Positions 50,334-56,420 of a stretch of 64,000 bases of DNA are shown piece by piece (position 1 is the stretch's first letter; every line of letters starts with the position of its first letter). A program made the translations under genes and the position numbers. Location of the stretch: sequence record PZ476263.1. One strand, written 5' to 3'. The notes below the pieces were generated by a model that was not told the origin of the DNA, searched no databases, and worked only from the letters and a program-made list of their open reading frames with translations. This DNA is from a phage.

Positions 50334-50408
50334 ATGGAAGGCCAGATCTTTTACGAATATGAAGGTTGTGACGAATACGACGGCTTCATTACATGGGGGG
50401 CGGGTTAA
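50334..50408 (+). CDS. Possible micro-ORF (24 aa)
   Basis: MEGQIFYEYEGCDEYDGFITWGAG. Its stop overlaps the next ATG (TAATG). Confidence 0.3.
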   Translation: MEGQIFYEYEGCDEYDGFITWGAG

Positions 50409-50440
50409 TGGGAGAAGAAAATTGGGACGTTTAGAAAAAA

Positions 50441-50653
50441 TTGAAGATTGGTTTTACGGCGGGATCTCTGGATGCTTTGAAGATGAACACCCAGACTTCT
50501 AATTATTTTCCTCTGGAAGATAATCCTCGTAATCATGAGTGTAAAGATTACGATTGCCTATGTTATTGCTGCGGTCATCGATTTGCAGGGCCAAAGAGAA
50601 GCATAATGTGTAATCTTTGTCTTAACAAGAAGAAACCTGTTGACAATAGCTGA
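50441..50653 (+). CDS. Cys-rich zinc-ribbon-like protein (up to 70 aa; start uncertain)
   Basis: HECKDYDCLCYCCGHRF...MCNLCLNKKK. An in-frame TAG at 50432-50434 separates it from a coupled ATG at 50408. Confidence 0.4.
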   Translation: MKIGFTAGSLDALKMNTQTSNYFPLEDNPRNHECKDYDCLCYCCGHRFAGPKRSIMCNLCLNKKKPVDNS

Positions 50654-50668
50654 TTAAATATGTAAGAT
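50640..50668 (+). promoter_or_regulatory. Sigma70-type promoter TTGACA-N17-TAAGAT driving the tRNA island
   Basis: -35 at 50640-50645 and -10 at 50663-50668. Confidence 0.55.
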
Positions 50669-50964
50669 TATTTTGTTGCCTGAGAGATTAGTCATCTTGA
50701 AGGCTGGGTGGGCAAATATAAGTTGGAACCATTATACCACCGACGCGATTTACGCTTTTGGTTGACTGTGACTAAATGGGATGCCCAGTCCATCCTTCTT
50801 TAAAACGGGGAGCCGTCGAAGATTGTCTGATTAGTGATTTACGGATCACTATAGTTTTACTACCACGACAATCTTTTACGGTGTACCCCTTGTCATGATG
50901 ACGAGGTTTAAGGTTATCCTGTCGTTAAATATCCAAAACCTGTTACCACCCACAAGAGAATTTA

Positions 50965-51047
50965 GCGCGGGTGTATCTCAACGGTCTTCTAAACCGTCGT
51001 TAATCGAGTAATTGGAGTATGAAGGTTCGAGTCCTTCCTCCCGCGCT
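50965..51047 (+). tRNA. Atypical tRNA-like element, possibly tRNA-Arg(TCT) or a pseudo-tRNA
   Basis: Canonical features: acceptor pairing gcgcggg/cccgcgc, T-arm gaagg-ttcgagt-ccttc, anticodon arm acggt-cttctaa-accgt. Atypical features: only 9 nt where the D-arm should be, a 23-nt variable region, 2 extra nt between the T-stem and acceptor, and no encoded CCA. Confidence 0.35.
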
Positions 51048-51064
51048 AAGTTCTTTTAAATGCA

Positions 51065-51140
51065 GGCCCTTTAGCTCAGTGGTTAGAGCAGGCGACTCAT
51101 AATCGCTTGGTCGCTGGTTCAAGTCCGGCAAGGGCCACCA
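51065..51140 (+). tRNA. tRNA-Met(CAT), elongator type (could be Ile2 if C34 is modified)
   Basis: Full cloverleaf folded by hand, G1-C72, anticodon loop ctCATaa, CCA encoded. Confidence 0.85.
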
Positions 51141-51157
51141 CTCAATAGTTTATTTAC

Positions 51158-51249
51158 AAGATCATTCAGTAATTAAGCGAATGCCGGAAGCAGAACCGGA
51201 TCAACAAATGCGTACGGGTGTCATCGCCACCTAGCAACTGAATGATCTT
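51158..51249 (+). ncRNA. Long hairpin: 13-bp perfect inverted repeat enclosing 66 nt
   Basis: aagatcattcagt (51158-51170) pairs with actgaatgatctt (51237-51249). Inner stem ccgg-N8-ccgg. Followed by TTTT. Confidence 0.5.
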
Positions 51250-51276
51250 TTAAATTCTCTTAACCTCATAAAATCC

Positions 51277-51305
51277 TTGACATAATAAGAAATTCCTGAT
51301 AACAT
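51277..51305 (+). promoter_or_regulatory. Promoter TTGACA-N17-TAACAT with a TGn extended -10
   Basis: -35 at 51277-51282 and -10 at 51300-51305. Confidence 0.55.
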
Positions 51306-51332
51306 CTCTATATCGACTTAATTGAGGTGCTT

Positions 51333-51707
51333 ATGCCTAAAGCTGAAATCGTTACTAGAAAACGGGGTCGGCCTACTACAGAGGAAAGTATCGCTATCAA
51401 CACCGAGAAGGCGATTCTTCATGCTCGTTCAGAGTTTGCAAGACTTACTCCTCAGGCGATTAAGACTCTGGAAGGTCTACTCACTTCCGGTACAGAGAAA
51501 GTTAAAGAAACTACTGCGAAGTATATTCTTGAACAGGCTGAAAAAGCTAACAATCTGTACACGATGGAAGATAATGAGGAAGATTTAGCGGGAGGTTCAA
51601 CTTCTGCGGATTCTGATACTCATAAAGGCCCTTCTGATGTATTTAAGGATGCAATTCCTCTTACTACTCAAATCAGAGAGTATAAAATTGCAGAAGGTGA
51701 AAACTAA
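51333..51707 (+). CDS. Hypothetical DNA-binding-like protein; weak small-terminase candidate (124 aa)
   Basis: RKRGRPTTEES N-terminus and an acidic tail. ATG at 51333 follows GAGGTG. Confidence 0.3.
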   Translation: MPKAEIVTRKRGRPTTEESIAINTEKAILHARSEFARLTPQAIKTLEGLLTSGTEKVKETTAKYILEQAEKANNLYTMEDNEEDLAGGSTSADSDTHKGPSDVFKDAIPLTTQIREYKIAEGEN

Positions 51708-51727
51708 AGGCTCTTAGGGGCCTTTTA
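51707..51727 (+). terminator. Rho-independent terminator
   Basis: Stem aaggctc/gggcctt with a 4-nt loop, followed by TTAT. Overlaps the stop codon. Confidence 0.55.
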
Positions 51728-51946
51728 TTAATAGTTCTTTTTAATGTAGTTGCTTGGTGTAATTTTTCGGCAGATGGCTGCAACCATCCTATCGATAACT
51801 CATAGTTAGTGCTGCAAACACTGGCTACCTTAAAGAGAATTTAACTCGTCGAATAAGGAAGATGCTGATCTCAAAGTGAGGTCACTTACCGCAAGGGGTG
51901 TGCATAGACTCCCGCTTCCGAATAGACTATGTGGCGAGATGTATTT

Positions 51947-52028
51947 GGGGACGTGGCAGAGCGGTCGAATGCGCCTGACTGTAAATCAGGTATCCCACAC
52001 GGTGGTTCGAATCCATCCGGCCCCACCA
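51947..52028 (+). tRNA. tRNA-Tyr(GTA)
   Basis: Anticodon arm cctga-ctGTAaa-tcagg, 10-nt variable region, T-arm ggtgg-ttcgaat-ccatc, one A-G mismatch in the acceptor stem, CCA encoded. Confidence 0.8.
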
Positions 52029-52282
52029 AATTAAGAAGCAGGGTCGCTACCTGCAAGTCGTCGGACTGAGATTCCCTGAATAAGACCCGACTTTAAGGCG
52101 TACAAATGTTCGGTTTAAAGTCCCTTATCTCACAGTCGAAACGGCGCATCCTATTCAGCCGTGATGTGATGTAATCACTGACCTCTTTGAAGGATCATGG
52201 CATCCTATACAAAAAAAAAACCTGAATAATTTAGGTTTTAATGCCTGGGGGTTCGTAGCCCTATTACTAAGAGGACTTAACT

Positions 52283-52492
52283 ATGTTTACTATTAAAATT
52301 ATTGATATCGATGGAAATGAGACGGGTGTTTCAACAAGGCACTACAGATGGTACTCAAAAATGAATATTTTTGATGTGGAGGGTGGAGAATCTGTTTCTG
52401 TACCACCAAAAAGTCGTGCTTATGTAATGAATGACAAAGGAATAACCATCGGTAGATACACAAATACAGCGGATCAACGCGTTCTTAATTAA
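52283..52492 (+). CDS. Hypothetical protein (69 aa) embedded in the tRNA island
   Basis: RBS AAGAGGA. Its stop lies 1 nt before tRNA-Gly. Confidence 0.55.
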   Translation: MFTIKIIDIDGNETGVSTRHYRWYSKMNIFDVEGGESVSVPPKSRAYVMNDKGITIGRYTNTADQRVLN

Positions 52493-52493
52493 A

Positions 52494-52568
<75 letters not shown>

Positions 52569-52667
52569 AACACATATCCATCTGACGCGTTTATGGGGTT
52601 GACCTGATCAATCTTCTCCTAATTTCGTGTGAAGACATCATGATTGTTGGGATGGATAAACTTATTT

Positions 52668-52742
52668 TGGGGATTAGCCAAGCGGTAAGGCATCGGATTT
52701 TGATTCCGACATTCACTGGTTCGAGTCCAGTATCCCCAGCCA
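52668..52742 (+). tRNA. tRNA-Gln(TTG)
   Basis: Acceptor tggggat/atcccca, anticodon arm tcgga-ttTTGat-tccga, T-arm actgg-ttcgagt-ccagt, CCA encoded. Confidence 0.85.
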
Positions 52743-52747
52743 ATTAA

Positions 52748-52824
52748 CGGTGTGTAGCGCAGCTTGGTAGCGCATCTGGTTTGGGGCCAGAGGGCCGTTG
52801 GTTCGAATCCAACTACACCGACCA
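52748..52824 (+). tRNA. tRNA-Pro(TGG)
   Basis: Acceptor cggtgtg/tacaccg, D-arm gcgc-agcttggta-gcgc, anticodon arm tctgg-ttTGGgg-ccaga, T-arm gttgg-ttcgaat-ccaac, CCA encoded. Confidence 0.9.
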
Positions 52825-52871
52825 ATTTACCCTCATATAACAATAATAAATATTCTCCTCTCCTTCGCCTC

Positions 52872-52899
52872 GGCTCTCCTTTTTTGGAGGGCCTTTTTT
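52872..52899 (+). terminator. Rho-independent terminator closing the tRNA island
   Basis: 8-bp stem ggctctcc/ggagggcc followed by T6. Confidence 0.7.
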
Positions 52900-52939
52900 A
52901 TTTGGTCTTTCGGTGATAAAATACTCAAAGGAGGTAATC

Positions 52940-53302
52940 ATGCCAGATTTTAAAAAATATTTATTCATTGCTATATTCATAGTGTTCTTAATTTCATCTG
53001 CTAAGCTTTATCTTAATCATGTTGAATCAGTAGGTTACGAAAAAGGTTTCAATGTTGCTAACTCTGCTTGGGTAAAAAAGGCAGGGGAGTACAAAAAGAA
53101 AATTGACGATACATATGAAGAAAACAAGCGTCTTAACGAGGAGCTTTCCCGATCCAATCAGGAAAAGATAAAGGATGAAAAGGCAAAAGAAGAAAAAATT
53201 ACCGATATGCAGATCGAATACTACAAGTCTGAAAAAGGTAAGGATGTCTTTGACAATAATGAAATAATTGACATATACAACGAATCCTTGGGGGTAAAAT
53301 GA
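52940..53302 (+). CDS. i-spanin (Rz-like) candidate (120 aa)
   Basis: N-terminal TM YLFIAIFIVFLISSA followed by a charged coiled-coil. RBS GGAGGT. A TGaTAAAAT extended -10 lies at 52914-52922. Confidence 0.55.
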   Translation: MPDFKKYLFIAIFIVFLISSAKLYLNHVESVGYEKGFNVANSAWVKKAGEYKKKIDDTYEENKRLNEELSRSNQEKIKDEKAKEEKITDMQIEYYKSEKGKDVFDNNEIIDIYNESLGVK

Positions 53303-54050: not shown

Positions 54051-54960
54051 AAAAATTTCCTGCCCATCGTATCTTAATCGGTGAAACTCTGTTATAATAA
54101 GTACAGACAATACCGAGATCCATTACCTGAAATGACAGTAGGGAGATATGATGAAAAAATTTGAAATTGTTCCAAGCAAACCTGAATTTTCCGTAAGTGA
54201 AGACGGGCTGATTATGTTTACCTCTACAGGTACTATTCTTAAGCCGTATGTTGATAAGGATGGTTACCACAGGGTTAGAAATTTCTCTGCTGGAGGTAAA
54301 TCTCATTACATCGCCGTTCATCGCGCCGTTGCTGAGGTTTTTGTTAAAAACCCTAACCCAAAAGTGTTTAAGATTGTTAATCACTTGGATAATGTTAAGA
54401 GCAACAATCATAAAACCAATTTGGAATGGACAACCGAATCATTAAACCGAGTTCATGCAGTTCATGCCAACGGTACAGCATCTGTTAGAAACAATGTTAA
54501 ATTTACAGAAGGTCAAGTCAGAAAGGTGTGTGAACTTTTGAGCTTGGGCTATCGGATAGTTGATATTGTGAAACTTACAGGCGTTGATAGATTCAATGTG
54601 ATGGCAATTAGAAGCGGAAAATCTTGGGTTCAGATCTCTTGTGAGTTTGAAACTTTAAAAGTAGAAAGAAAAGATACACTGTCTGAAAAGACGATTCTTT
54701 GGATTAAAGACCAAATTAATCGCCAAAGGTCAGATGATGAAATACTTTTAATGTCGGTAAGACTTACAAAAGAAGAGCTTGAAAGAGCAAAGAAGATTAT
54801 TTCATTGATGGATTGTAACGACTAATGCTGATGAGTGTAAGCATGTAGGGCCAAGCGGTCCGAAACGATACGCCAAGGATGGAAGATATAGTCTGAACTA
54901 TATGGTGACATATAGCTGCTTAAGCAGGGTTAAGATTAGCGATCTTAATCGAACACAATG
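54051..54960 (+). mobile_element. Group I intron (td-like, IA2-type core) carrying an HNH homing endonuclease gene
   Basis: The 3' part gaagatatagtctgaactatatggtgacatatagctg...ggttaagattagcgatcttaatcgaacacaatg closely parallels the T4 td intron 3' end as I recall it. It starts after a U and ends in G. Confidence 0.7.
54148..54825 (+). CDS. Intron-encoded HNH homing endonuclease (225 aa)
   Basis: GYHRV...HRAVAEVFVKNPNPKVFKIVNHLDNVKSNNHKTNLEWTT (I-HmuI / HNH_3-like). RBS AGGGAG. Confidence 0.8.
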   Translation: MMKKFEIVPSKPEFSVSEDGLIMFTSTGTILKPYVDKDGYHRVRNFSAGGKSHYIAVHRAVAEVFVKNPNPKVFKIVNHLDNVKSNNHKTNLEWTTESLNRVHAVHANGTASVRNNVKFTEGQVRKVCELLSLGYRIVDIVKLTGVDRFNVMAIRSGKSWVQISCEFETLKVERKDTLSEKTILWIKDQINRQRSDDEILLMSVRLTKEELERAKKIISLMDCND

Positions 54961-55020
54961 TGGAATTTACATTTATAGGTGTGGACGAAGGCACTCAGTT
55001 TGAGTGGGAGCAGTTAATCT
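54961..55020 (+). CDS. terL: Terminase large subunit, 60-nt exon 2 (Walker B)
   Basis: Joining gives ...KYDIQG-L-EFTFIGVDEGTQFEWEQLI, in frame. Ends on the U at 55020. Confidence 0.65.
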
Positions 55021-55341
55021 AGCTGCCTCGTACAGTAATGTACGATGAGAAATTCTTGTGAATTGCTGGAAAATCCTTAGAGCTTGTAAAACTACAACAT
55101 GACCTGCAAAGGTGAGTGTGAATGTTAAAAATTTACAAGATTGGACGATCAGCCTCCAAGCCTCTTTACGAGAGGAAGGTTCAACGACTAGCCGAAAGGC
55201 GTAGATCATAAGCAAATGATGATCGAAGTGCAAGACCCCTACCTTATTGGTAGGGTGAAGATATAGTCTGATCTGCATGGTAACATGCAGCAGTGCTTGA
55301 GTGCACGGCAACGAACTTGCGATCCGTTGCGAACATAACAG
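55021..55341 (+). mobile_element. ORF-less group I intron (td-like core)
   Basis: gaagatatagtctgatctgcatggtaacatgcagc...gcgaacataacag mirrors the 3' core of intron 1. Internal ggttcaacgactagccgaaaggc. The alternative 3' end at 55329 is also in frame. Confidence 0.6.
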
Positions 55342-56420
55342 TAGAATACATGATGTCTCGTCTTCGTTCCAGTTCTTCTTACCCTTCACGAATGGTAATT
55401 AGTTGTAACCCTGATCCTGATCATTATCTTCGTAAGATGGTTGATTGGTATCTCGATAAGGATGGTTATCCTGATCCTACAAAGGATGGAGTCATTCGAT
55501 ATTTCGTTCGAGTTGATGACCAATACATGTGGGGCGAATCAGTAGAAGAGCTTAAGAAGCGGTACGGTAAGAAATGTAAGCCTGTTTCTTTTACATTTAT
55601 ATCTTCTACTATTTACGATAACCCACCAATGCTTATTAACAACCCAGACTATCTAGCACAGCTGGAAGGTCTTAATGAGGTTGACAGAGCAAGACTGTTA
55701 CACGGCAACTGGGATGCACGTCCTCAGGGTGCTAACTATTTTAAACGTTCTTTTCTTAAAGAGGTTGATGTTCTTCCTTTAGGTGTAGATAAGGTTAGAT
55801 CATACGATAAAGCAGGAACTGAACGTTCTACAGGTAATAAAACACCTGACTTTACAGCCGGAATCGGTGTGGCGAGAGATCAGGACGGAATTTATTATCT
55901 TTTTGGCGATTATTGTGAAGAGTTTGTTGATGAAGGTGATTGGTCTACTGGCAACCTTGGTAGGTTCTGTAAGAAAGCTGGTGAACGAGATACGATCATT
56001 ATGAAACAAGCAATTCATGACGGTGATGATGTTAGAATAATATTCCCTGTTGACCCTGGTCAAGCGGGTATTGCTGAATTCACTACATCTTCCCGAGAAT
56101 TATTAAATCAAGGATTCATTGTTGAGAAAGACCCAACTCCTGGTAACAAGAAGAAGCTTGTACGCTTCTCTCCGTTTGCTAACCTTGCTCAGAACGGATT
56201 TGTTAGGATTGTTAAAAAGTCTTTCCCTTTGGATACCTATGAAGCATTAATGAAAGAGCTTGAATCTTTCAATGGTGAAAGGTCAACAGGGACACGTAAA
56301 GATGACTGGGTGGATGCTATCTCAACCGGAATAAATTTCCTTGAGAAAACAGAAATAGTCAGGGCTGTTACAATACCACGACCTTCTGCCCCAACACTTT
56401 ATTCGAAGTATCGACGATAA
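55342..56420 (+). CDS. terL: Terminase large subunit, exon 3 (nuclease domain)
   Basis: ...L-EYMMSRLRSSSSYPSRMVISCNPDPDH.... Spliced total is 1494 nt, giving 497 aa. Confidence 0.7.

Follow-up and report, generated by a model that had tools for sequence, protein, structure and literature searches.

Between a short open reading frame and a tRNA gene, the phage DNA analysed here (the window, 64,000 nt of a ~140-kb genome; record PZ476263.1) carries an interval that the first-pass annotation described as a promoter-driven, structured leader of ~290 nt. At its end stands an atypical tRNA-like element, for which a decayed tRNA, a functional non-canonical tRNA and a decoy had all been proposed. Which of these is it, and does it belong with the leader? 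The interval was found to be composite, with a promoter followed by a unit of ~580 nt that holds, in order, a 5′ segment, a structured module (module A), the tRNA-like element (module B), a tRNA-Ile2 gene and a terminator-like hairpin, all read from the + strand. With a probability that we put at roughly 60%, this unit is the promoter-driven front of an operon supplying tRNAs for the codons AGA/AGG and AUA, which are rare in E. coli; module B would be a genuine but rearranged tRNA-Arg, and module A an independent element.

Layout of the transcription unit

The putative sigma-70-type promoter at 50640-50668 is present as claimed, with TTGACA (50640-50645) and TAAGAT (50663-50668) on either side of a 17-nt spacer and 10 of 12 consensus matches in a scan. 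The −35 hexamer falls within the 3′-terminal part of an ORF (50441-50653), and the promoter sequence is the same in the relatives LTH01 and W70. Promoter-like sites in the region were no more frequent than in shuffled sequence (6 found, 5.0 expected), and the motif is therefore no proof by itself. A Pfam search with the eight neighbouring ORFs gave nothing informative. The whole leader folds better than its shuffles (z = −3.2). A single leader of ~290 nt proved too simple a description: a lineage-specific part is joined to a module that T4-type phages have as well. Neither is it free of ORFs, as first stated: ORFs of 30-40 aa are present, although none looks conserved as coding.

The lineage-specific 5′ segment (50672-50803; fold z = −2.0) is present in only six closely related phages. 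A hairpin is predicted at ~50678-50704, next to a multibranch domain whose closing helix joins GGGUGGGC (50706-50713) to GUCCAUCC; this minimum-energy long-range helix tolerates the substitutions of the relatives. The TGGGCA/TGCCCA pairing proposed earlier does exist in the window, but relatives have TGGATA for TGGGCA with no compensating change. Small ORFs lie in the segment, among them 50708-50803 (31 aa), whose stop codon is not kept in LTH01. No Rfam family was found for the 5′ segment at E values up to 10 in a search of 50400-53200.

At the other end of the unit, ARAGORN and Rfam both recognize a tRNA with anticodon CAT and an encoded CCA (51065-51140), labelled tRNA-Met by ARAGORN. This gene is 98.7% identical to an E. 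coli tRNA-Ile of the ileX type, which reads AUA, and the matching features are annotated as tRNA-Ile in 5424 of 5426 E. coli genomes; on the strength of this identity we assign it as tRNA-Ile2 and not tRNA-Met. It is followed by a long hairpin (51158-51249; fold z = −3.9) with a 13-bp closing stem, AAGAUCAUUCAGU/ACUGAAUGAUCUU, and then UUUUAAAUU. As a putative terminator, the hairpin probably closes the unit, and the next promoter-like site follows at 51277-51305.

The tRNA-like element and its family

Module B and its flanking clamp (50954-51057) were assigned as a non-canonical tRNA-Arg(UCU) by the Rfam tRNA model, a family model, covariation and conservation. The T arm (51021-51037, GAAGG-TTCGAGT-CCTTC), the anticodon arm (50981-50997, ACGGT-CTTCTAA-ACCGT; 5-bp stem, 7-nt loop with U33, anticodon TCT at 50988-50990) and the missing CCA had been read correctly; the discriminator is a G (51045). 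The ‘perfect’ acceptor pairing first proposed, GCGCGGG/CCCGCGC, had to be revised: in it, T stem and acceptor are 2 nt apart, and the tRNA register given by both Rfam and the family model is GCGGGTG/CTCCCGC (50967-50973 with 51038-51044), with a U-U mismatch at 6:67. Outside it, 50954-50966 and 51045-51057 can form 13 contiguous pairs, the outer helix of the predicted fold (z = −4.6), and acceptor and clamp together make a helix of ~20 bp.

The Rfam tRNA model RF00005 finds 50967-51045 with 35.8 bits (gathering score 29), aligning the D-arm as a deletion (4 nt for 15) and placing a 20-nt insertion in the variable region; beyond this general tRNA model, no specific Rfam family matched module B. 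ARAGORN does not call the window’s copy as a tRNA. Only 7 nt (UAUCUCA) separate the acceptor and anticodon stems, and the D hairpin that a canonical tRNA has between position 9 and position 26 is missing. On the surface, the element thus has no D-arm and a variable region of 23 nt, as previously described, but part of that variable region pairs with nucleotides 5′ of the anticodon stem. A GG-containing loop and a helix equivalent to the D-stem are both present, with their connectivity swapped. The stretch in question reads TAT (U8 A9 U, 50974-50976), CUCA (50977-50980, one strand of the swapped D-stem), the anticodon arm, a bulge CGTTAAT (50998-51004), CGAG (51005-51008, the partner strand) and the D-loop-like TAATTGGAGTAT (51009-51020).

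Viral and metagenome scans yielded 143 distinct members of this family from unrelated phages and metagenomes. The element occurs in 270 phage records of unrelated groups, always within tRNA clusters, and is almost never annotated. A family model separates members (92-99 bits; a divergent copy 54) from canonical tRNAs (at most 32 bits), and the window’s copy scores 96.3 bits (E = 2e-25, full length 1-79) on a model built without it. The TAT, CGTTAAT and TAATTGGAGTAT of the window correspond to the family’s U8 A9 U, its CGUUAAY-type bulge and its D-loop-like UAAYUGG-A-GUAU. Part of the invariance of CGTTAA, GTAA and TGGAGTATG across the family stems from the two scan patterns, neither of which imposed TAT-C.

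Covariation backs four helices. In a family alignment of 40 sequences, 93.9% of cells are paired compared with 65% in shuffles and 35-46% in slid registers, and double-sided changes number 229 compared with 63 in shuffles. Paired cells reach 98.9% in the acceptor and 98.5% in the T stem, and four of the five anticodon-stem pairs change on both sides. The fourth helix is new: it joins the 3-4 nt 5′ of the anticodon stem to 3-4 nt in the ‘variable region’, directly before UAAYUGGAGUAU, and in the window it corresponds to CUC(A) at 50977-50980 with (C)GAG at 51005-51008. In the 40 sequences, pair 12-43 is UA 28 times, AU six times and GC six times, pair 13-42 is CG 34 times, GC four times and UA twice, and no cell is unpaired; across 144 parsed cores the helix takes more than 10 Watson-Crick combinations. 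A V-arm hairpin, UUAAU-CGAGUA-AUUGG, was also considered for the variable region and rejected, since its two variable positions fail to covary and fit the alternative helix instead.

Conservation within the subclass of the window’s copy adds to this picture. The element is 100% identical in five relatives in which the adjacent tRNA differs, and where the copy in SSBI34 departs from it, in the anticodon stem, the T stem and at pair 6:67, the changes are compensatory. A decayed tRNA is ruled out by the full conservation beside a diverged tRNA, the score of 96 bits and the covarying helices. We regard as extremely improbable the broader proposal that module B is a pseudogene behind a leader that is non-functional spacer or recombination debris. 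The absent ARAGORN call, the U-U in the acceptor stem, the missing CCA and the deletion of the 3′ block of module A in viable relatives would all suit it, but not the match to a family model made without this copy, the compensatory changes relative to SSBI34, or covariation that includes the non-canonical helix across the family and the rod of module A. Far from lacking conservation and covariation of their predicted helices in relatives, the tRNA-like element and the 5′ rod of module A display both.

The element belongs to a widespread and apparently undescribed family of arginine tRNAs from phages, with one half of the D-arm shifted across the anticodon arm. After U8-A9, the chain would pass through the 3′ strand of the D-stem, the anticodon arm, the 7-nt bulge CGUUAAY and the 5′ strand of the D-stem into the D-loop-like stretch. 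That stretch would supply A14, R15, Y16, Y17, G18, G19, A20 and A21, then Y48, before the chain enters an ordinary T arm. As a net result, segment 10-21 would be transposed to the position of the variable region with the canonical core nucleotides all present, and an L-shaped core with the determinants for ArgRS (A20, C35, U36/G36, A/G73) could form as a consequence. Judging from sequence, we infer that the element is equivalent to a canonical tRNA in three dimensions, is charged by ArgRS and takes part in decoding.

Its identity as an arginine tRNA is supported by several lines of evidence. Anticodons were counted with an anchor pattern that places no constraint on them, and 142 of 143 members have an arginine anticodon (UCU 129, ACG 6, CCU 6, UCG 1; the remaining one is ACU). 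The identity set of E. coli ArgRS consists of A20, C35, U/G36 and A/G73. Of 40 copies, 39 have an A directly after the GG of the D-loop-like stretch; 137 of 144 carry G or A as discriminator, and 97 of the 143 whose 3′ tail was scored encode a CCA. The window’s copy has C35, U36 and G73, and its A may be predicted to occupy position 20 in three dimensions. G3:U70, the alanine identity element, was rejected as a family feature, being found in only seven of 40 members and absent from the window.

The genomic context points in the same direction. Large arrays of 15-28 tRNAs carry the element and no canonical Arg(tct) (L061, L065, L119, L125, L116), and L162 combines canonical Arg acg and ccg with two family members, CCU and UCU. 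ARAGORN itself calls four family copies tRNA-Arg(tct), namely those of L032, L155 and L160 and the second copy of L162. Within the 64 kb of the window ARAGORN found no canonical tRNA-Arg, though the rest of the ~140-kb genome may hold one, and AGA and AGG make up 23.5% of the Arg codons in the window’s ORFs. A functional non-canonical tRNA, one of the first proposals, is thus favoured at the level of the family by the 142 arginine anticodons of 143, the 97 encoded CCA ends and the arrays without canonical tRNA-Arg(UCU), but a decoy still has some claim on the clamped, CCA-less subclass to which the window’s copy belongs.

Clamped copies without an encoded CCA

Among members with flanking sequence, 24 of 65 lack the CCA, and nine of these 24 have 8-15 further contiguous pairs between their flanks; none of the 41 CCA-type members with flanks has more than two. 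The window’s copy is such a CCA-less variant, with GCUA where most members have GCCA, clamped in its helix of ~20 bp. It also has the U-U mismatch in its acceptor stem, and the locking of its 5′ and 3′ ends in this helix could hinder both RNase P cleavage and aminoacylation. In one array of 23 tRNAs (L061) a clamped copy is the sole UCU decoder. In another phage (L102) a clamped copy lies directly beside a canonical tRNA-Arg(tct), which means that the element is not needed there as the only UCU decoder.

These differences could indicate that the clamped CCA-less subclass, including the window’s copy, is not aminoacylated and serves as a tRNA-Arg mimic, a decoy or inhibitor for some host enzyme with tRNA-Arg as its target, for instance a colicin D-type anticodon nuclease or a modification enzyme. 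The confinement of long flank pairing to CCA-less members, the location in L102 and the canonical, strongly conserved anticodon stem-loop are all consistent with a mimic. However, the clamped copies keep all features of the CCA type, including C74 and A76 (GCUA or GCAA for GCCA), the discriminator and the A20 of the D-loop-like stretch, and the clamped copy of L061 alone decodes UCU in its array. Furthermore, four different arginine anticodons point to decoding rather than mimicry of one loop, and the repair of CCA-less phage tRNAs by host enzymes is well established for T4. On balance we consider a mimic rather unlikely.

As a rearranged tRNA-Arg, the window’s copy would have to be cut from its transcript, presumably by RNase III in the clamp and/or by RNase P together with 3′ trimming of the RNase BN type. 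Once trimmed, it would receive its CCA from the host enzyme, as the CCA-less tRNAs of T4 do.

The same cleavages could be the point of the element. It might mainly be a processing handle, a tRNA-shaped or double-stranded mark for RNase P or RNase III, that parts the leader from tRNA-Ile2 and sets the 3′ end of a stable leader RNA. Its position in the predicted transcription unit, with a structured leader before it and a tRNA after it, would suit this role, as would the likely resemblance of the ~20-bp helix to an RNase III substrate, and the species 1 and 2 RNAs of T4 are matured from tRNA-containing precursors. A handle, however, has no need of an arginine-restricted anticodon loop, an A20-like nucleotide or the CCA encoded in two thirds of the family, and the neighbours of the element in most phages are just ordinary tRNAs or ORFs, with no module A. 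A main function in processing therefore seems distinctly improbable to us.

A structured RNA module in common with T4-type phages

Module A (50804-50943) has a counterpart of ~87% identity in hundreds of T4-type phages, in the intergenic region of rIII and 30.9. With 50790-50950 as query, hundreds of Tevenvirinae including T4 match at 81-87% identity over 85-87% of the length, and 776 records match overall. It folds better than shuffled sequence (50803-50945; z = −4.5). The 5′ rod (50804-50889) consists of P1 (50807-50810 with 50886-50889), P2 (50813-50816 with 50878-50881), P3 (50820-50827 with 50867-50874) and P4 (50832-50839 with 50844-50851). Its inner helices take up the hairpins described in the first-pass annotation, which are indeed in place: aagattgtc/gacaatctt at 50819-50827 with 50867-50875, and agtgat/atcact at 50833-50838 with 50845-50850. 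In 12 sequences of the rod, 98.9% of cells are paired and ten pairs show double-sided changes, compared with 3.1 in shuffles and at most one in slid registers. This covariation extends between the lineage of the window and T4.

The 3′ part (50888-50943) comprises the hairpin CCTTGTCA-TGA-TGACGAGG at 50888-50906, which had also been noted correctly, and a block, TGACGAGGTTTAAGGTTATCCTGTCGTTAAATATCCAAAACCT, that is nearly invariant in T4-type phages, even in copies without the 5′ rod (PM2, L011). In some T4-type phages the tip of the hairpin bears insertions of 50 nt or ~170 nt. W70 has lost 50894-50953, and A73 shows the same two-piece match; both relatives are viable, and the 3′ block is therefore dispensable in them. 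The whole of module A could be a passenger of recombination.

Two further functions were considered for the 3′ block and rejected. As coding sequence (MMTRF.. at 50895-51011; MVILSLNIQNL.. in T4-type phages), it suffers from 1-nt indels in T4 and SA21RB that shift the frame, from AAG in the window where T4-type phages have ATG, and from a spacing to the Shine-Dalgarno-like GAGG that is too short. As a promoter (GTTTAT-N14-TAAATA), its −10 is poor by eye and a scan of the T4 locus reports no site. A link to the genes next to it in T4 was likewise discarded for this phage: tblastn found no homolog of rIII or 30.9 in the window, where module A stands between a promoter and tRNA genes. The expression of rIII and 30.9 is the topic of a paper by Driukas and Nivinskas (2003, Biologija), cited in PMC9409239. 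No Rfam family was found for module A at E values up to 10, neither in 50400-53200 nor in the copies of T4, RB69 and SA21RB, including those with the 50-nt and 170-nt insertions, and a full-text literature search found nothing on module A or module B.

Module A would be an independent structured RNA module gained by exchange with T4-type phages. Its 5′ rod would most likely act as a stabilising or processing structure in cis, or be released as a stable RNA. In T4 itself it constitutes an unannotated RNA element, supported by covariation, in a region annotated as empty. As a separate observation, the 8-mer GUCGUUAA occurs both in a loop of module A and in the bulge of module B; ~0.17 such matches are expected by chance.

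Exchange between phages also raises the question of whether these features act in DNA. The clamp arms could be terminal inverted repeats of a small mobile element carrying a tRNA, and module A a site of recombination or homing. Module B has spread across unrelated phage families at 83-90% identity, HNH endonuclease genes lie directly downstream of it in Roth49 and SSBI34, and module A is common to T4-type phages and Vequintavirinae. Homing endonucleases would explain such spread but not a conserved fold. Moreover, the stems of the module B family and the rod of module A contain G-U pairs that fit only a transcript of the + strand. Terminal inverted repeats were rejected for the clamp arms, whose sequences are wholly different between lineages with only their complementarity kept, and whose G-U pairs would be mismatches in DNA. 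We therefore judge features at the DNA level to be very improbable.

Significance and comparison with known systems

If the fold is as proposed, the family represents a natural tRNA with canonical core nucleotides but altered strand connectivity, a variant not described in the reviews of non-canonical tRNAs that we found. It would show how far the tRNA core stands re-threading while serving ArgRS, EF-Tu and the ribosome, and a structurally distinct tRNA scaffold is of possible interest for orthogonal translation. Hundreds of deposited phage genomes appear to have an AGA/AGG decoder that is unannotated or labelled ‘tRNA-OTHER’ or ‘hypothetical protein’, which biases work on phage tRNA repertoires and on codon adaptation.

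A more far-reaching synthesis is possible, which we offer tentatively and hold to be unlikely as a whole. A widespread natural tRNA, threaded differently through the L-shaped core, would be the arginine tRNA of many phages, re-wired for a reason beyond decoding. The clamped CCA-less subclass would be a regulated or RNase III-dependent pro-form, and T4-type and rV5-type phages would exchange module A as a new, mobile structured RNA. Users would include FelixO1-like, phi92-like, rV5-like and T5-like phages and jumbo coliphages of 350-380 kb. One possibility is that the re-wiring hides the phage tRNA-Arg from a nuclease or modification enzyme, of the host or of a competitor, that recognizes tRNA-Arg by its D-arm. 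Sublineages with G3:U70 and A73, as in copies of the FelixO1 type, could even be charged by AlaRS, resulting in AGA-to-alanine or dual decoding.

The closest known counterpart is canonical tRNA-Arg(UCU), as in E. coli argU and T4. In common with it, module B has a 7-bp acceptor, a 5-bp T stem with the loop TTCGAGT, a 5-bp anticodon stem with the loop CUUCUAA, an A/G discriminator and a GG-A motif that could offer A20 to ArgRS, and, as for canonical phage tRNA-Arg, the setting is a phage tRNA cluster and the codon rare in the host. In contrast, its anticodon arm separates the two strands of the D-stem, its D-loop-like stretch runs into the T stem and a 7-nt bulge CGUUAAY is conserved; the window’s copy in addition lacks the CCA and has a 13-bp extension of the acceptor.

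Mitochondrial tRNAs that lack the D-arm, such as metazoan mt-tRNA-Ser for AGY/AGN and nematode mt-tRNAs, are reviewed in PMC7609411. Like them, the phage element has no conventional D hairpin and is presumed to be a working tRNA; AGN decoding in both is probably a coincidence. However, mt-tRNAs are truncated and have lost the contacts between D-loop and T-loop, whereas in the phage family the D-stem is kept but re-wired, together with a D-loop that resembles the consensus. At 79 nt without CCA, the phage molecule exceeds the length of a standard tRNA, and it belongs to bacterial hosts with standard translation machinery. Allo-tRNAs and the 8/4 or 9/3 tRNAs of bacteria and phages are also non-canonical, were found by sequence mining and come partly from phage tRNA clusters (PMC5389517). 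Those tRNAs redivide the 12 base pairs of acceptor and T stem and keep the D-arm, whereas the phage family keeps 7/5 and alters the connectivity of the D-arm.

Small RNAs and tRNAs of well-studied phages offer further parallels. The first-pass annotation likened the leader to the small RNAs of the T4 tRNA region. Of these, species 1 and 2 (rnaC, rnaD) are structured and non-coding, share a transcript with phage tRNAs and are freed by the enzymes of tRNA processing; the T4 counterpart of module A, in contrast, is found at rIII-30.9, a long way from the tRNA cluster of T4. Phage tRNAs also act against tRNA-cleaving defences, as do T5 tRNA-Lys against PARIS and T5 tRNA-Tyr against the retron-associated PtuAB. 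The rearranged family is similarly a phage tRNA variant whose altered structure could escape or soak up a host nuclease, but the T5 tRNAs are canonical cloverleaves with point differences, and the family has an ordinary, host-like anticodon loop. We know of no tRNA-Arg-directed defence linked to it. Among coliphages, rare-codon tRNA cassettes are represented by ileZ-argN-argO of Stx phages, with a canonical cloverleaf tRNA-Arg, and many records of Stx-converting phages matched a query that took in the tRNA-Ile2 gene. Like those cassettes, the unit described here sets an AUA-reading tRNA-Ile2 and an AGA/AGG-reading tRNA-Arg behind a phage promoter; unlike them, it has the order Arg then Ile, a structured leader in front and a tRNA-Arg of non-canonical form.

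A mosaic leader upstream of the tRNA genes

The closest matches to the region were Escherichia myophages of about 140 kb (Vequintavirinae), with A7_1 (96%) and UPEC06 nearest to the window, followed by A5-4, LTH01, A73 and W70. The sequence features listed in the first-pass annotation proved real overall. Its promoter, TTGACA-17-TAAGAT, was recovered by scan at 50640-50668 on the + strand, with identical copies in LTH01 and W70; the leader hairpins are in place, and the strong folding it had described was confirmed against shuffles (z = -3.2 for the whole leader, -4.5 for 50803-50945). Some points need correcting: small ORFs exist in the leader, which had been described as free of them, and a proposed tgggca/tgccca pairing is not kept by relatives.

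The leader is a mosaic, in which three segments searched separately gave three different distributions. Segment 50630-50800 had matches in six close relatives only. Segment 50790-50950, holding a structured RNA (module A, 50804-50943), matched 776 phage records, nearly all from T4-type phages (Tevenvirinae) at 80-87% identity, and segment 50955-51058, corresponding to a tRNA-like element (module B, 50954-51057), matched 270 records spread over many unrelated groups of phages. The best reading of module B is a functional, though non-canonical, tRNA-Arg from an apparently undescribed family; ahead of it lies an independent structured module common to T4-type phages.

A structured RNA common to T4-type phages

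In T4-type phages, T4 itself included, the counterpart of module A always lies between the rIII stop codon and the gene 30.9 start and is unannotated; no rIII or 30.9 homologs were found in the 64-kb window. No part of the module matched an Rfam family, and a literature search found no publication on it. The 5' rod (helices P1-P4, 50804-50889) has its full length in T4, RB69 and the window, but is reduced to a short hairpin in IME339 and CF-SP2; PM2 and one further locus (L011) lack it. Depending on the phage, the tip of the second hairpin (50888-50906) is bare or holds an insertion of 50 nt or about 170 nt, and the 3' block, TGACGAGGTTTATGGTTATCCTGTCGTTAAATATCCAAAACCT, is nearly invariant. 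A coding function for this block was ruled out, as indels break the frame and the ATG is absent in the window.

Across 12 sequences, the four rod helices were 98.9% paired, with 10 pairs changed on both sides; shuffles gave 3.1 such pairs and slid registers no more than 1. P1 is GGGG/CCCC in the window vs GAGG/CCUC in T4-type phages, with further variants in P2 (CCGC/GUGG, CCAU/AUGG) and P3 (AUUAUC/GAUAAU). About 10 G-U cells in the rod are compatible with pairing of the + strand only, the strand transcribed from the promoter in the window and from rIII in T4. Because the covarying rod was kept after transfer between phage families, these data argue for an RNA-level role, most likely as a cis-acting stabilising or processing structure or as a released stable RNA. 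W70 (L199) offers a natural experiment on the dispensability of the T4-invariant block: a clean 60-nt deletion (50894-50953) removes this block of module A and nothing else. Since promoter, rod and module B are all retained, the 3' block is dispensable in the window's lineage. The window match of A73 has the same gap.

Several smaller observations concern this module and its border. The ~170-nt insertion in the second-hairpin tip is closed by CUUAUAGC/GCUAUAAG (SA21RB, L003 1575-1750; also in loci L008 and L010) and had no Rfam match. Within the ~50-nt insertion of RB69 (L001 2578-2650) lies AAGGTTATCTGTCTAAGTC, apparently a degenerate second copy of the invariant 3' block. An 8-mer, GUCGUUAA, occurs both in the conserved loop of module A (50921-50928) and in the conserved bulge region of module B (50996-51003), probably by coincidence, since chance alone would give about 0.17 such matches for the two modules. 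The 5' arm of the helix that clamps module B, AAGAGAATTTA (50954-50964), recurs as an identical 11-nt stretch immediately before the 30.9 start codon of T4-type phages (AAAAGAGAATTTATAATG; T4, L004 ~797-810), which could mark the right-hand recombination boundary of the T4-derived segment or be due to chance.

A probable phage tRNA-Arg family with a rearranged D-arm

ARAGORN called five tRNAs in the window, at 51065-52824, and the Rfam tRNA model added a sixth, weak match at 50967-51045 (35.8 bits vs a gathering score of 29), the core of module B. BLAST matches to module B were located in tRNA clusters of Klebsiella and Proteus Mydovirus phages, Salmonella phage SSBI34, Asteriusvirus jumbo phages (350-380 kb), Felixounavirus, phi92-like phages, Kuravirus, T5-like Klebsiella phages, a Vibrio phage and Streptomyces phages, almost always without annotation and twice labeled "tRNA-OTHER". 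Pattern scans, two on IMG/VR and one on metagenome contigs, enlarged the family to 144 parsed cores, one of which was a false positive (an ordinary tRNA-Ile), leaving 143 true members. The family looks phage-borne, as a scan of 185,579 species genomes gave only 10 copies, every one of them on a contig from a metagenome-assembled genome.

Covariation among relatives, which the first-pass annotation had proposed as a check, was found here as in the module A rod. In 40 sequences the proposed structure was 93.9% paired, whereas shuffles reached 65.1% and slid registers 35-46%, and it had 229 double-sided changes vs 63 in shuffles. Besides the acceptor, anticodon and T helices, a fourth helix joins the 3-4 nt after an invariant U-A-U with the 3-4 nt before UAAYUGGAGUAU. 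Its two central pairs had no unpaired cells in the 40 sequences (first, UA 28, AU 6, GC 6; second, CG 34, GC 4, UA 2), and the larger set of parsed cores added CC/GG, GG/CC, UU/AA, AG/CU, UG/CA and others. In standard tRNA numbering, we infer the chain order 7, U8, A9, 22-25, 26, 27-43, a 7-nt bulge, 44, 10-13, A14, R15, Y16, Y17, G18, G19, A20, 2 nt, A21, Y48, and 49 onwards. All conserved tRNA core nucleotides would thus be present, with segment 10-21 moved from before to after the anticodon arm. On a covariance model built from 34 members, leaving out the window's copy and that of SSBI34, the window's copy scored 96.3 bits, other members 92-99 and canonical tRNAs at most 32; by these scores the family is discrete from canonical tRNAs. 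A divergent second member inside one 28-tRNA array (L162 13337-13431) scored 53.6 bits; its bulge is shorter (AGAAA), its swapped helix has only 2 bp and its D-loop-like stretch is longer, so the family is broader than the search patterns capture.

The anticodons point to arginine. The third and fourth scans were anchored on the D-loop-like block and T loop only, and the 143 true members carry UCU (129), ACG (6), CCU (6), UCG (1) and ACU (1). Four of these are arginine anticodons, with both codon boxes represented, and ACU is the one exception. In 39/40 copies GG is followed by an A, the discriminator is G or A in 137/144, and 97 of the 143 tails that were scored encode CCA. Canonical tRNA-Arg(tct) is missing from element-bearing arrays L061 (23 tRNAs), L065 (28), L119 (15) and L125 (22), the last with no other Arg tRNA at all; array L116 has Arg gcg, tcg and cct with the element, and L162 has canonical Arg acg and ccg with two family members (CCU, UCU). 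Only in L102 does a canonical Arg(tct) adjoin the element. ARAGORN itself called tRNA-Arg(tct) for four family copies. We put the probability that the family represents true arginine tRNAs at roughly 85%, judging from sequence comparison.

A G3:U70 acceptor pair occurs in 7/40 members, with pairs 1 and 2 varying (L019, KB57; L020, JNE01; L021, Roth49; L050; L095; L121; and L125, FelixO1-like). In the FelixO1-type copies (L050, L125) it stands together with A73, the AlaRS identity set, so that an AGA-reading tRNA might there accept alanine or be dually charged; the window's copy has G3-C70. HNH endonuclease genes lie directly downstream of the rearranged tRNA in two unrelated phages (Roth49, L021 1289-1798; SSBI34, L027 1315-1674), a possible vehicle for its horizontal spread. 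Family-bearing arrays also gave ARAGORN oddities: 2-base or 4-base anticodons ("tRNA-???"; L019 763-837, L042 262-337, L065 7278-7348, L125 2806-2882, L188 1770-1845), a tRNA-Pyl(cta) call (L180 2109-2182) and a tmRNA in a phage contig (L116 6424-6703).

The window's copy falls in a CCA-less, clamped subclass. Among 65 members with flanks, none of the 41 ending in N-CCA had more than 2 flank pairs, and 9 of the 24 without CCA had 8-15 further contiguous pairs, a few more having interrupted helices. Where the first-pass annotation saw a perfect acceptor pairing, the acceptor register of the window's copy has a U-U mismatch at 6:67 and 13 extra flank pairs (50954-50966 facing 51045-51057, including two G-U pairs); GCUA replaces the GCCA of most members. 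Clamp sequences vary among lineages with complementarity kept, which points to selection at the RNA level. The copy is not a decayed tRNA, as had been considered: it is 100% identical in five relatives though the adjacent tRNA diverged, and it differs from SSBI34 by compensatory changes. It is thus under selection, and the other option raised, a functional non-canonical tRNA, is the best reading given the covarying fold and arginine anticodons of its family. The clamped subclass could possibly be a non-charged mimic. We lean towards the window's copy being matured and charged: it would be excised from the transcript by RNase III and/or RNase P, then be trimmed at its 3' end and given a CCA by the host, a route known from T4 tRNAs that lack CCA.

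A probable tRNA operon and nearby intron

Further downstream, a full-length Rfam group I intron match (54986-55290, +, 78.7 bits) lies between + strand ORFs 54148-54825 and 55293-56420, which together are probably the large terminase subunit. As this gene is single and uninterrupted in LTH01, the arrangement suggests an intron-split terL in the window.

Next to module B is a CAT tRNA (51065-51140; ARAGORN, tRNA-Met(cat)) that shares 98.7% identity with the AUA-reading, ileX-type tRNA-Ile of E. coli. LTH01 and W70 have a clearly different CAT tRNA at this position; given this and the near-identity to E. coli, the window's gene may have been replaced by a host-like version. A 92-nt hairpin (51158-51249, fold z = -3.9) with a 13-bp closing stem, internal sub-hairpins and then a U-run, UUUUAAAUU, may be more than a terminator, and a second strong promoter-like site (TTGACA-17-TAACAT, TG extension) was found by promoter scan at 51277-51305. 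Across 54 ORFs of the window, 23.5% of the Arg codons are AGA or AGG, a share several times that in E. coli. With an AUA-reading tRNA-Ile next to module B, this codon usage, and a hairpin and U-run before the next promoter-like site, the unit has the look of a cassette of rare-codon tRNAs, with a content comparable to that of ileZ-argN-argO in Stx phages.
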